Assembly: GCA_934772525.1 (NCBI GenBank)
Contig: CAKVMI010000001.1
Coordinates: forward strand, 182,613-246,612
DNA from: an uncultured Clostridia bacterium
GTDB taxonomy: Bacteria; Bacillota; Clostridia; Christensenellales; UBA1242
DNA length: 64,000 bases
Reading direction: 5' to 3'
The notes beneath the pieces were generated by a model. That model worked only from the letters and a program-made list of their open reading frames with translations. It made no database searches and had not been told where the DNA came from. How positions within the stretch are numbered: position 1 is the first letter of the stretch; each line of letters starts with the position of its first letter. Below are positions 25,428 to 29,777 of this stretch, piece by piece. The position numbers and the translations under genes are program-made.

Positions 25428-26726
25428 ATGGAAATTGAACTGAAAAAGGAAGAATTGGCGAGGAGAATATTCGATTTTTATTTAGGAAGGAGAGAATTTT
25501 CTCGTGATGAAATAACGGCTTACGCTATTGCTTTTGCTGGTAGTGTTAAAAATGTTGATACGGATAAAATCGGGTCGGTAAATGTTTGTTATGAGCCGAT
25601 ACCTGCGGGGGAAGGTTCTGCTAATCCGTCTAATAAAATAACTGTTTCGGGCGATTCGCTTATGTCTGTTAGGTGTTTTGCAAACGACCTAGACACCATT
25701 TGGCATGAGTTTGGGCATATTGTAGACTTTGGCGAGATTAGGTCGGGGAGCGAAAAGGCTTTGGAAACGGTGTATATTTATAATGTCTGTGCACCTTTGT
25801 TTGTGTCGGCATTTTGTGAAGTAAATAAATATGGTCTTAACCCAAGATTAAAACGAATTTGTGAAAGTCGTTACGGAGATTCTGAAAAGCGTAATGGTGC
25901 GGGCGATGGTTTTGCATTTAAAAATGCTTTTGCTATACGAAAAATTGACAATGCAGTTTCGACCGTTTCAAAATTTTTAGAAAGTATGTACTATACATCG
26001 GAGTCGGAGCGTAATGCGCGAGATTTTGCGTCCGATGTTGCGTATGAGTTTATTAATTGTTTAAATGGTTTAAATTTAACGCAAAAAGAATCGGTTAAAT
26101 TATTAGAACTTGCAATGGAAGTTCAAAATATTGAGATAGAAAAAGAAAGTGCTTTAAATGAATTAAAAAAAATGTATACGGTTAATAAAAATAAGTTTTC
26201 CGATGCGTGTCGTGCGGTGTTGGACTATTACTTTAAAGAAAATAGTGACGGAGTTTGTTTATTTGATAGTAGTGATATTAATACACAAGTTGAAATGGCG
26301 GAAGTCGCGTCGCTTTGCTTATTTAAGGTATTTAATCCATTATATGCAAGAAGGGTTTTGAACAAGTACCAAACTTTTTCCGAAAGACAAGATTTGCTTG
26401 TTGGTAGATGTGAAATAGGTAAACGCTGGATAGATAGACGTGAAAAATTAGAGGGTAATAGTAAAACGGGCAGTGTGCTAATTAAGGCATACAACCGAGC
26501 AAGAAATTTGTTGGACGATATTGGTTTTTCTTTGGGACTAATGGAAGTACTGCTTTATGTATCTCCAATAAAATGGGAAGAGCAAGATAAATTTGTGCTT
26601 GAAAAAAAGTTTAAAACATTTTCAAAGAAGCAAATTGAATTTATATTAAGTAACAGAAATGCGATGAATAAATCGTTAAATGAAAACATTAATGTAGAAG
26701 AGATTATGGCGGAAGAAAAAGTATAA
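25428..26726 (+). CDS. HExxH zinc-metallopeptidase-like protein (432 aa)
   Basis: Single zincin motif DTIWHEFGHIVDFGE (HEFGH = nt 25704-25718). The rest is alpha-helical. No signal peptide. Confidence 0.45.
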   Translation: MEIELKKEELARRIFDFYLGRREFSRDEITAYAIAFAGSVKNVDTDKIGSVNVCYEPIPAGEGSANPSNKITVSGDSLMSVRCFANDLDTIWHEFGHIVDFGEIRSGSEKALETVYIYNVCAPLFVSAFCEVNKYGLNPRLKRICESRYGDSEKRNGAGDGFAFKNAFAIRKIDNAVSTVSKFLESMYYTSESERNARDFASDVAYEFINCLNGLNLTQKESVKLLELAMEVQNIEIEKESALNELKKMYTVNKNKFSDACRAVLDYYFKENSDGVCLFDSSDINTQVEMAEVASLCLFKVFNPLYARRVLNKYQTFSERQDLLVGRCEIGKRWIDRREKLEGNSKTGSVLIKAYNRARNLLDDIGFSLGLMEVLLYVSPIKWEEQDKFVLEKKFKTFSKKQIEFILSNRNAMNKSLNENINVEEIMAEEKV

Positions 26727-26821
26727 ATATTGTAGTATAAAATTAAATTAATCTAATTGGAGGAATGGATTTAGTTTACTTTAAACATGGTTTTTAGTAT
26801 ACTATATATTAAAGAGAAAAT

Positions 26822-27988
26822 ATGCAAACAAAAGAAATTTTAATAAAACATTTTGATTGGACGGAACAAGAAGTAATTGACAAAGCTAAAAAATTGGATT
26901 TTATTTTTAGTGAATTGTCTGAAAATGCCGTGCTTGAATTAACGCAGTTTTTTTGTGATGAATTTAAGCTGAGTGAGGATAAATTTAAAAAAATATTAAA
27001 GAAGATGCCTTCGTTATTAAATTTTACAATAGAAGGTATTAAGAAAAAAGAACAGTTTTATGAAAGTGTATATAGTATGAAACGTGAGCAGGTTAACAAG
27101 ATGGTTAAGGTGTTTCCTAGGATTTTAGGTTTATCTACCCAAAGCGTACTAGATAAGGAAAATTTTTACAAAAGTGAATTTAGAGTGACTCATGATGATT
27201 TTTGTAAGATGATAAGGTTGTCTCCTGCACTTCTAAGTTACGATACCGATAGTGTGCAAGAAAAGACGAAATTTTATGAAAGTATATTTGGCATTACCAG
27301 TATAGAATTTGGTAAGATGATGAAGGTGCATCCTGCGTTTTTAGGTTACTCTACAGATAGTGTTCAAGAAAAGGCTAAATTCTATGAAGATACATTTGGC
27401 ATTATCAGTACAGAATTTGGTAAGATGATAAAGGTGTTTCCTGCACTTCTAAGTTACGCTACCGATAGTGTGCAAGAAAAGGCGGATTTTTATGAAAGTA
27501 TATTTGGCATTACCAGTACAGAATTTGGTGAGATGATAAAGAAAGTTCCTGCATTGTTGGGTCGATCAATAGAGAGTGTACAAGAAAAAGTTAGAGAAAT
27601 CAAAGATATAAAAATCCCATCACAAGTAATAGTACAAAACCCAAGTATTTTAGCGGTTCCTAAAAACACCCTAAAACTAAGATATGTAATTTTAAGAAAT
27701 ATAGCAACAAGAGAAGAAATATTTTCATATCCTAATTGGTATATGACTAGTCAAGACAAAACATATGCAAGGGCATGTTATCTATCAGAGACGGGGAAAA
27801 AGCTTAACTGGAAAACTGTTTTGTATTCAGAAAAATTGTTTGGTAAGATGTGTGGTGTATCGAGCGATGAATTAATGGCAAAATACAAATTAACAGCTGG
27901 AAAATTTGAAAAATTAAGATCGGTCTTAGAGAAAGACGAAATAGTAGATTTTAACGATGATGAAAAAGGCGGTATAGAAGAAAAATGA
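26822..27988 (+). CDS. mTERF-like helical-repeat protein, short paralog (388 aa)
   Basis: Built from 36-aa units such as KMIKVFPALLSYATDSVQEKADFYESIFGITSTEFG. Its stop overlaps the start of the next paralog (ATGA). Confidence 0.5.
   Translation: MQTKEILIKHFDWTEQEVIDKAKKLDFIFSELSENAVLELTQFFCDEFKLSEDKFKKILKKMPSLLNFTIEGIKKKEQFYESVYSMKREQVNKMVKVFPRILGLSTQSVLDKENFYKSEFRVTHDDFCKMIRLSPALLSYDTDSVQEKTKFYESIFGITSIEFGKMMKVHPAFLGYSTDSVQEKAKFYEDTFGIISTEFGKMIKVFPALLSYATDSVQEKADFYESIFGITSTEFGEMIKKVPALLGRSIESVQEKVREIKDIKIPSQVIVQNPSILAVPKNTLKLRYVILRNIATREEIFSYPNWYMTSQDKTYARACYLSETGKKLNWKTVLYSEKLFGKMCGVSSDELMAKYKLTAGKFEKLRSVLEKDEIVDFNDDEKGGIEEK
27206..27600 (+). repeat. 3.5 tandem copies of a 108-bp coding repeat (36-aa unit)
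   Basis: Direct comparison of consecutive 108-bp blocks and their translations. Confidence 0.8.
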
Positions 27989-29463: not shown

Positions 29464-29483
29464 TTTAGGTTAAGGATAAGAGA

Positions 29484-29777
29484 ATGGATAAAAAAATAAT
29501 AGATTTTATTAAAAGTTATAATATTACAGATTTAGAAATAGAAGACATGAAGTCTATTTCTGTATTGCTAGATGTTACAACATTTGAAGAATTTATGACG
29601 AATGCTTTATTGTTAATTGAATACGGTTACCCAAAGTCAGATTTGGATGTTCTTTTGCTTAATAATCCGTATATATTTACAGAATCTGCAAGTGTGCTAA
29701 AATCTGATCTTGAGAGTTTAAAAAGTAAATACGGGGATATAGAAGAGATTTTAAAAGAAGACCCAACAATTATCTAA
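29484..29777 (+). CDS. small mTERF-like protein (97 aa)
   Basis: AAGGA RBS. LLLNNPYIFTESASVLKSDLESLKSKYG repeats the P-x-I/L-x-x-x-S...L-x-x-K pattern of the neighbours. Confidence 0.4.
   Translation: MDKKIIDFIKSYNITDLEIEDMKSISVLLDVTTFEEFMTNALLLIEYGYPKSDLDVLLLNNPYIFTESASVLKSDLESLKSKYGDIEEILKEDPTII

Follow-up and report, generated by a model that had tools for sequence, protein, structure and literature searches.

A conserved pair of mTERF-type genes, one long and one mini, in uncultured low-GC gut Clostridia

Introduction

mTERF proteins are textbook organellar factors. A gene cluster in a bacterial chromosome that appears to encode several of them raises the question of whether the products truly belong to this family and, if so, which of the neighboring genes work with them. 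We analyzed such a cluster at positions 25428–29777 of a 64,000-nt stretch of DNA from an uncultured Clostridia bacterium (contig CAKVMI010000001.1). The whole stretch is called the window in the following, and all coordinates are positions in it. A first-pass annotation, made from the letters of the sequence alone, had described one HExxH protein followed by three mTERF-like repeat proteins and had read the four genes as an accessory islet at an integration hotspot with a role in conflict or regulation.

Papers on plant mTERF proteins up to 2026 describe the family as absent from prokaryotes. In 2024, a paper in Nucleic Acids Research named pTERF, prokaryotic mTERF-like tandem-repeat proteins with 3–11 units (PMC11417379). 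According to the pTERF section of that paper, these proteins occur only in metagenome-assembled genomes (MAGs), mostly of Bacillota, and no more than a few dozen homologues make them a very rare family; the founding member, pTERF1 (MBQ3414883.1), is from an unclassified ruminant-gut Clostridia bacterium. pTERF1 binds the double-stranded DNA (dsDNA) motif ACTNNNAGTC with a dissociation constant of 1.87 nM, pTERF2 binds a different motif, so that the motif changes with the arrangement of the repeats, and the authors propose a modular DNA recognition that is possibly reprogrammable (PMC11417379). As two pTERF proteins have been shown to bind specific dsDNA, the view of the first-pass annotation that bacterial mTERF proteins are essentially uncharacterized is outdated. 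Our literature search found no other paper mentioning pTERF; the mTERF family is already known in bacteria and is barely studied there.

Results and discussion

The two long repeat proteins are mTERF proteins by profile and motif

The two long proteins of the cluster, named A and B here, match the mTERF profile PF02536 with 168.7 and 160 bits, respectively (for E-values, see Table 1). Both scores are far above the Pfam gathering threshold of 23.1 bits. The competing solenoid families TPR, PPR, and Sel1 gave no match in the Pfam scan of A and B, which decides between these families in favor of mTERF.

The proteins are built from units of 36 amino acids (aa) in an exact register, with six clear units in A and nine in B. 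The consensus KMIKVFPALLGLSTDSVQEKAKFYEDTFGITRTEFG, which had been proposed for this unit beforehand, fits the central units in that register. On the DNA level, the units appear as 108-bp tandem arrays with Tandem Repeats Finder (TRF) scores of 423–939. The repeat pattern is real and far beyond chance. Protein A starts with an N-terminal part of 56 aa, continues with the six units, and ends in a conserved cap region of the mTERF type; this cap-like region aligns with the end of the Pfam model.

The canonical mTERF signature is kept as well. It combines Pro8 with a hydrophobic residue at each of the positions 11, 18, and 25 (Roberti et al. 2009, as given in PMC11417379) and was scored in a register that begins one residue earlier than the unit register. 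P8 is present in all 15 units of A and B. Position 11 is Leu or Ile in 12 of the 15 units and Gln in three units of B, position 18 is Val, Ile, Leu, or Ala in 15/15 (a single Ala), and position 25 is Tyr or Ile in every unit.

When the family profile was compared with the sequences of solved structures in the PDB, MTERF3 was the best match (3.6e-14), and MTERF1, Tetrahymena mS93, and MTERF4 were also found. Orthologues range from 289 to 534 aa, equivalent to about 3–10 units, and the homologues P0004–P0010 have precomputed PF02536 matches. Taken together, profile and motif identify A and B as mTERF proteins. P0010 (565 aa, a distant mTERF match) was considered as a second bacterial lineage and rejected, because an EnY2-like neighbor and a GC content of 47.5% on its contig indicate that it is probably eukaryotic.

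The third repeat protein is a mini-mTERF

The 97-aa protein encoded downstream of B gave no PF02536 match at E ≤ 1 and no Pfam match at all, and a precomputed PF02536 match exists for only one of the 65 clusters of its family. With hhalign, it aligns with the last repeat and the cap region of the long proteins (E 3.2e-5), and the hidden Markov model of its family finds the long proteins at E about 1e-6.

The structural test of the fold covers this protein. AlphaFold gave a very confident model (pLDDT 96.4) with the helices grouped 2 + 1, in line with the mTERF motif, in which a short third helix follows two α-helices. In a Foldseek search of the PDB, the top 13 matches of the model were all mTERF proteins (MTERF3, MTERF4, MTERF1, and mS93), and the superposition on MTERF3 (3m66) had a TMq of 0.78 and a root-mean-square deviation of 2.3 Å. 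The Foldseek E-values are weak (at least 0.19) because the query is short. Viral structural analogues were not found, as all viral matches had a TMq < 0.4. We assign the 97-aa protein as a mini-mTERF by predicted fold and profile–profile evidence, not by Pfam. The count of three mTERF-like proteins in the first-pass annotation is correct, although the third is recognized by profile and structure and not, as A and B are, by Pfam.

By profile search, the mini-mTERF family comprises 65 clusters, nearly all with 96–97 aa; its members are 38–66% identical at constant length. All mini proteins are acidic, with an isoelectric point (pI) of 4.05–4.62 in 15/15 and a net charge of −6 to −15. The pI of the long proteins is 8.4–9.2 in 15 of 18 sequences.

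Long and mini gene form a conserved, apparently resident chromosomal pair

Adjacency of the two genes was counted at loci with downstream DNA, i.e., 13 loci of a first set and three further ones (L020, L021, and L023). A homologue of the 97-aa protein is encoded directly 3′ of the long gene in all 16 of them. According to the coordinates, the gap is at most 1 nt or the genes overlap in 10/13 loci of the first set, which suggests that the pair is usually translationally coupled.

The family of A is rare, with seven clusters in a word-seeded search of 5.8 billion proteins. A scan of GTDB with one genome per species gave eight matches, each a single locus in a low-GC MAG. Seven of these, among them a sheep-colon RGIG MAG, are labelled as uncultured Clostridia and one as Eggerthellaceae. 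Bacterial mTERF loci have a GC content of 26–38%. The genome with the Eggerthellaceae label (L010, CAVCJG010000001.1) is a case of its own. This is a high-GC actinobacterial family, yet the 17 kb of the locus have 37.8% GC and the dcw-cluster synteny of the Clostridia MAGs, and the genome is probably mislabelled or misbinned.

Three neighborhoods were found, and each is conserved inside its own group. In group (i), which includes the window, the order is tRNA-Ser, HExxH gene, mTERF, mini, and Rrf2-IscS-IscU. In group (ii), the pair lies between a cell-wall cluster (ftsW and others) and a murA-like gene. In group (iii), tilS-spoIIE-amidase precede the pair, and genes for a hydrolase and a transketolase follow. 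Unassigned open reading frames (ORFs) beside the mTERF genes in L006, L008, L011, and L014 had been considered as HExxH relatives and were ruled out by blastp.

No mini-mTERF was found on viral contigs. In the PADLOC-DB 2.0 scan of six proteins, i.e., the four of the window and two HExxH relatives, the window proteins gave nothing better than E 0.026 and the best value of all six was E 0.0094; none is significant. The phage families of PHROGs gave no match above noise. Because of the housekeeping neighborhoods, the absence from viral contigs, and the lack of PADLOC and PHROGs matches above noise, the pair looks like a lineage-specific resident gene pair and not like a mobile or a defence element. 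At its core, the cluster has a chromosomal module of two genes that is confined to one clade of uncultured gut Clostridia with a low GC content.

A and B resemble pTERF proteins and may act as DNA-binding regulators

pTERF proteins are the closest published counterpart. Like A, B, and their orthologues, they consist of strictly tandem mTERF-type three-helix units in a similar number (3–11 in pTERF, 3–10 here), they are rare, and they come from gut-metagenome MAGs of uncultured Bacillota, including Clostridia; L013 belongs to the same ruminant MAG collection as pTERF1 (PMC11417379). Set beside the published description, A and B are most likely members of pTERF, and they are probably new members of a known family. 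The pTERF section of PMC11417379 gives no genomic context and reports no cellular role or working partners. What is new from this locus is the invariant acidic mini-mTERF partner, the chromosomal contexts with their synteny groups, the tandem duplication, and the possible strain-level variation of repeats. The partner gene is a direct experimental lead on the physiology and regulation of pTERF proteins and on the engineering of DNA-binding tools.

We consider it probable that A and B are pTERF-type dsDNA-binding resident regulators, that the mini-mTERF modulates them, and that the HExxH protein is a bystander. Here, the pTERF membership, DNA binding, the complex with the mini-mTERF, and the regulatory role are inferred. 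The long solenoid would bind specific dsDNA along the concave face of its repeat array and would serve as a resident gene-expression factor, either as a repressor or as a roadblock or terminator in the manner of MTERF1. The acidic mini-mTERF would bind the long protein. It could cap or extend the solenoid, or it could be an antagonist in competition with DNA; in both cases, it would modulate DNA binding. The tandem duplication, with six and nine clear units in the two copies, would probably provide two specificities. The HExxH gene would be an unrelated neighbor and the prophage a separate insertion beyond the tRNA-Ser gene.

Several points weigh against this proposal. With a pI of 7.5, protein A is near neutral, and with a pI of 5.7, its orthologue in L013 is even acidic. 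The best relatives with a solved structure include the RNA- or ribosome-associated proteins MTERF3, MTERF4, and mS93. pTERF1 is reported to lack the canonical Pro8/Leu11/18/25 signature (PMC11417379), whereas the repeats of the window keep it, and A and B could represent a second bacterial mTERF family. The pTERF1 motif ACTNNNAGTC was considered as a marker of the locus and rejected, as it is not enriched in the window (four sites found vs 5.8 expected) and none of the sites is near the operon. As each protein is expected to have its own specificity, this lack of enrichment carries no information. A binding site for A or B was not recognized in the window either.

The pTERF1 site ACTNNNAGTC (PMC11417379) contains a perfect 3-bp inverted repeat (ACT-N3-AGT). 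This hints at a dimeric or two-fold recognition and not at a linear code of one base per repeat. Such a symmetric recognition might involve the conserved C-terminal region or a partner protein.

Compared with the organellar mTERF proteins (PF02536; human MTERF1, MTERF3, and MTERF4, and plant mTERF1–38), A and B share a Pfam score far above the threshold, the signature, the cap-like region, and, presumably, the nucleic-acid-binding fold, and the mini-mTERF superposes on MTERF3 as described above. However, the genes of the bacterial pair lie in operons next to tRNA-Ser, Rrf2-IscS-IscU, ftsW, or spoIIE, and their products are without organellar targeting. The organellar proteins have degenerate, interspersed motifs of about 30 aa, whereas the 36-aa units here are near-identical and strictly tandem, and a separate mini-mTERF partner gene is likewise a feature of the bacterial loci.

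The organellar relatives suggest another role for the pair, namely as an RNA-binding or ribosome-biogenesis factor in the manner of MTERF3, MTERF4-NSUN4, Tetrahymena mS93, or plant mTERF9. The target of the long solenoid would then be rRNA or some other structured RNA, with the mini-mTERF as an adaptor. MTERF3 is the best sequence match in the PDB, with mS93 and MTERF4 among the other matches, and the structural matches of the mini-mTERF include MTERF3 and MTERF4 in mitoribosome assembly intermediates. The pair lies among housekeeping genes and looks clade-wide. MTERF4 acts as a heterodimer (PDB 4fp9) and is, thus, a precedent for a partner protein. Nevertheless, we regard this role as unlikely. 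The number of repeats varies between orthologues and apparently between strains, which fits poorly to a conserved rRNA target, and no gene for a methyltransferase or a ribosome-assembly factor is consistently adjacent. Furthermore, the only bacterial relatives that have been tested bind dsDNA specifically and with nanomolar affinity (PMC11417379).

The HExxH gene is a probably unrelated neighbor

The first gene of the cluster indeed encodes a 432-aa protein with the zincin motif DTIWHEFGHIVDF. Its family is small, with five representative clusters in an exhaustive HMMER search of 1.84 billion representatives and three clusters in the word-seeded search of 5.8 billion proteins. The protein and its relatives, scanned member by member, gave no significant match in Pfam, NCBIfam, PADLOC, PHROGs, or PDB; the nearest was a weak SprT-like match of one relative (E 0.071). 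The AlphaFold model, built from a four-sequence alignment, had a pLDDT of 39.5 and was unusable.

Two motifs are conserved in the family, WHExGH and, about 97 residues further on, YYxSxxExxARxFA with the invariant E194. HExxH is kept in seven of eight aligned members, and one tandem paralogue has lost it. It is, therefore, a reasonable inference that the protein is a putative gluzincin-type metallopeptidase. Its ExxARxFA resembles the ExxANxFA motif of ImmA/IrrE. With the zincins and gluzincins (ImmA/IrrE of M78, SprT-like proteins), it shares the conserved HExxH and the invariant downstream Glu in ExxARxFA. However, the spacing from HExxH to this Glu is about 97 residues and not about 25, a significant profile or PDB match is missing, and there is no helix-turn-helix (HTH) repressor partner. 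A further similarity concerns the 2461-aa protein of the adjacent prophage, in which HExxH is also followed by ...TSE..AR; this parallel is not significant. A link of the HExxH protein to the HExxH region of the prophage protein was rejected, as hhalign gave a probability of 0.7% and the Pfam scan of the segment was empty.

For the comparison of assemblies, L003, L004, L020, L021, and L023 are from the same species as the window, with HExxH proteins that are 97–98% identical, and L002 is from a different species of the same species group. Linkage of HExxH and mTERF genes is confined to this one group (the window, L002–L004, and L020–L023). The loci fetched for three distant HExxH relatives (L017–L019) have no mTERF gene nearby, and synteny groups (ii) and (iii) have no HExxH gene. 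The linkage of the HExxH gene to the mTERF family that had been proposed, thus, fails in co-occurrence. L018 carries three tandem HExxH paralogues at 2840–6154 (358, 377, and 345 aa), the middle one without the motif (WKNVGY), and L019 also has tandem paralogues. These observations suggest that this orphan family is small, evolves fast, and includes a member that is catalytically dead.

The 95 bp that separate the HExxH gene from the first mTERF gene show 98% conservation when the window is compared with L002, vs about 87% DNA identity of the flanking genes, and hold a weak promoter-like site at 26775–26803. This difference in conservation suggests that the mTERF genes have a control region of their own and form a transcription unit separate from the HExxH gene. 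The palindrome GTTTACTTTAAAC at 26774–26786 occurs once in the window; it is not significant, as 33 of 100 shuffled sequences contained at least one, and is a lead to a candidate operator.

If the HExxH peptidase and the mTERF proteins nevertheless formed one conflict or regulatory module at an integration hotspot, the protease could, for example, cleave or activate the DNA binders, similar to ImmA/IrrE-type proteases, which cleave their repressors. The genes are co-oriented, no terminator was predicted downstream of the HExxH gene ahead of the first mTERF gene, all assemblies of the species group have the same order HExxH-mTERF-mini, the ExxARxFA motif is similar to that of ImmA/IrrE, and both families are extremely rare. 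We nonetheless judge such a module to be highly improbable. In addition to the mTERF-mini pairs without HExxH gene, the HExxH relatives without mTERF gene that occur as tandem paralogues, and the separate transcription unit suggested by the promoter-like region, the HExxH gene of L001 (product 44% identical) ends in its own terminator hairpin, although the contig stops before the next gene. There is also no PADLOC or PHROGs match above noise, no viral contig with a mini-mTERF, and the variable DNA is found beyond the tRNA gene (see below). The peptidase-linked conflict or regulatory module of the first-pass annotation is, hence, not upheld. The HExxH gene is no conserved part of the mTERF module and most likely a lineage-specific, unrelated neighbor.

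The tRNA-Ser hotspot is genuine, but the mTERF cluster is not its cargo

Positions 1–24706 of the window are a prophage with genes for the terminase large subunit (1882–3594), the portal protein (3869–5950), and the major head protein (6904–7770). The last prophage gene (17242–24627) encodes the 2461-aa polyvalent protein mentioned above, which has an ART-PolyVal ADP-ribosyltransferase domain and an HExxH of its own (HEMTH). By blastn, homology with the prophage-free assembly L004 begins at 24706, 21 bp past the 3′ end of the tRNA-Ser gene, and the insertion disrupts the tRNA-Ser terminator hairpin about 21 bp beyond that end.

The DNA to the left of the tRNA-Ser gene differs in content between all three strains compared within the species. 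It is the prophage in the window, FUSC_2 and flavodoxin genes in L004 (1–2776), and HTH_3, YpsA, and LRR_5 genes in L020 (1–7300), where no recognizable integrase was found beside the tRNA gene. The order tRNA-Ser, spacer, HExxH, mTERF, mini-mTERF, and isc genes is constant in all three. As the variation is confined to the left of the tRNA-Ser gene, the mTERF cluster on the constant right side does not belong to the cargo of the hotspot. Of the accessory islet at an integration hotspot, the hotspot itself is confirmed and the islet is not. As both the HExxH gene and the prophage are bystanders, a false lead on the role of the pair is removed.

Tandem duplication and repeat variation of the long gene

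The long gene is duplicated as A and B in the window and in L003, where the arrangement is on a 344-kb contig. Three other same-species assemblies have one long gene each, a B-like gene for 492 aa in L020 and an A-like gene in L021 and L023. In L004 (coverage about 2x), there is a chimera for 310 aa that joins the 5′ part of A to the 3′ part of B. In another species, the members of one 90%-identity cluster have 393, 357, and 321 aa, i.e., they differ in steps of exactly 36 aa. The A form with 388 or 390 aa has 30 cluster members. The duplication itself is probably real because the A form, which needs a resolved A/B junction, recurs on contigs of up to 530 kb. The differences in copy and repeat number may be a polymorphism due to unequal recombination or a collapse in short-read assembly. 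With the duplicated gene and the variable number of repeats, the suggestion of an expanding family at this locus is supported.

A and B differ unevenly along their length. Units 1 and 2 (26990–27205 vs 28153–28368) are 100% identical over 216 nt. In the N-terminal 56 codons, 13 codons differ, with 12 nonsynonymous changes and one synonymous change, and the C-terminal part has 17 nonsynonymous and six synonymous changes. This mosaic suggests a recent gene conversion between the copies. In the central units, the synonymous rate (dS) is 0.46 throughout, and in a partition of positions that was picked post hoc and is descriptive only, the ratio of nonsynonymous to synonymous rates (dN/dS) amounts to 0.15 for scaffold positions vs about 1.0 for unit positions 3, 5, 6, 8–13, 26, 32, and 33. 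The variable positions, so partitioned, would fit specificity-determining residues.

That the two-gene layout and the repeat differences are assembly artefacts of one repeat-rich gene, or that the genes are a functionless recent acquisition from a eukaryote, is scarcely credible: the chimera in L004, the single long genes in L020, L021, and L023, the 108-bp repeats of about 80% identity with near-identical gene ends, which are hard for short reads, and the otherwise eukaryotic distribution of mTERF are outweighed by the A + B arrangement in L003 and the 30 members of the A form on long contigs, by two intact ORFs with scaffold residues under purifying selection, by the bacterial operons of 26–38% GC in many independent MAGs, and by a partner gene whose conservation (38–66% identity at constant length) indicates long residence and selection.

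Near-identical tandem units, few hypervariable positions, and a repeat number that varies between alleles are also known from TALE, BurrH, and STAR-type proteins. However, these proteins have an unrelated fold, a one-repeat-one-base code is not known for mTERF-type repeats, and the short inverted repeat of the pTERF1 motif (PMC11417379) is no obvious fit to a linear code. A more far-reaching reading, which we hold to be decidedly doubtful, is that the long protein and the mini-mTERF are a quickly reprogrammable two-component DNA-recognition system. Unequal recombination of the 108-bp units and gene duplication may then shift the target specificity between strains, the mini-mTERF may gate DNA binding as a DNA mimic or a cap, and the HExxH protein may be its dedicated protease in this lineage. 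Equally doubtful is a separate suggestion that the Clostridia genes record an inter-domain transfer of mTERF in either direction. If true, it would overturn the textbook view of mTERF as a purely eukaryotic invention.

Layout of the locus and minor observations

The features of the locus are listed in Table 1. As described in the first-pass annotation, four co-oriented genes lie on the plus strand between the tRNA-Ser/prophage junction and the isc operon, and about 600 bp of non-coding DNA, in fact 610 bp without an ORF of at least 60 aa, precede them. The ATG of B overlaps the stop codon of A as ATGA, the ribosome-binding site AAGGA is 8 nt 5′ of the start of the mini-mTERF gene, and Rrf2-IscS-IscU follow downstream from 30146.

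Table 1 Features of the mTERF locus and its surroundings in the window
Feature	Position	Strand	Remarks
tRNA-Ser(GCT)	24727–24817	−	ARAGORN; same tRNA in L003, L004, L020, L022
610-bp non-coding spacer	24818–25427	.	no Rfam match
Orphan HExxH protein of 432 aa, pI 5.5, all-helical by prediction	25428–26726	+	contains DTIWHEFGHIVDF
95-bp intergenic region before first mTERF gene	26727–26821	+	candidate promoter/operator of mTERF operon
Long mTERF/pTERF-type protein A, 388 aa, pI 7.5, 6 clear units	26822–27988	+	PF02536 E 1.9e-49
108-bp tandem DNA array, 3.2–3.6 copies, 76–82% matches, central repeats of A	27200–27588	+	TRF
Long mTERF/pTERF-type protein B, 492 aa, pI 9.0, 9 clear units	27985–29463	+	PF02536 E 8.7e-47
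108-bp tandem DNA array, 6.2 copies, 79% matches, central repeats of B	28363–29038	+	TRF
Mini-mTERF, 97 aa, pI 4.2, net charge −11, about 2.7 mTERF motifs	29484–29777	+	AlphaFold, Foldseek, hhalign

Of the sigma-70-like promoter matches in the region, the best one (TTGAAA-17-TATAAT plus an extended TG, 25369–25397) is in the spacer, 30 bp before the start of the HExxH gene. A 231-bp segment in the middle of the spacer (25097–25327) is shared by the window and L004 but missing from L002, and the proximal part of about 100 bp is conserved. The spacer upstream of the HExxH gene also has an unusual skew of G over C (GC skew 0.44 for 25001–26000).

A direct tandem repeat with a unit of 14 bp, GCCAAACTATTTGT GCCAAACTCTTTGT, is located at 29924–29951, in the 368-bp spacer that separates the mini-mTERF gene from the Rrf2 (IscR-like) gene. 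It is kept in the same-species assemblies L003, L020, L021, and L023, is a single copy in L004, and occurs nowhere else in the window. Either the Rrf2 regulator or the mTERF proteins could use it as an operator.

In the prophage, ARAGORN predicted two tRNA genes at 8206–8468. One is a tRNA-Ala of 88 nt whose anticodon, AGC, is unusual; the other is a tRNA-Phe(GAA) and overlaps the ORF 8441–9127 at its start. At its gathering threshold, Rfam found only the tRNA-Ala of this pair and missed the chromosomal tRNA-Ser. Further downstream of the isc genes, the ORF 37137–41039 encodes 1300 aa with BspA-type leucine-rich repeats (LRR_5) and hints of Flg_new, according to the precomputed annotation that L002 and L003 have for the identical gene; the product is probably a large surface protein.

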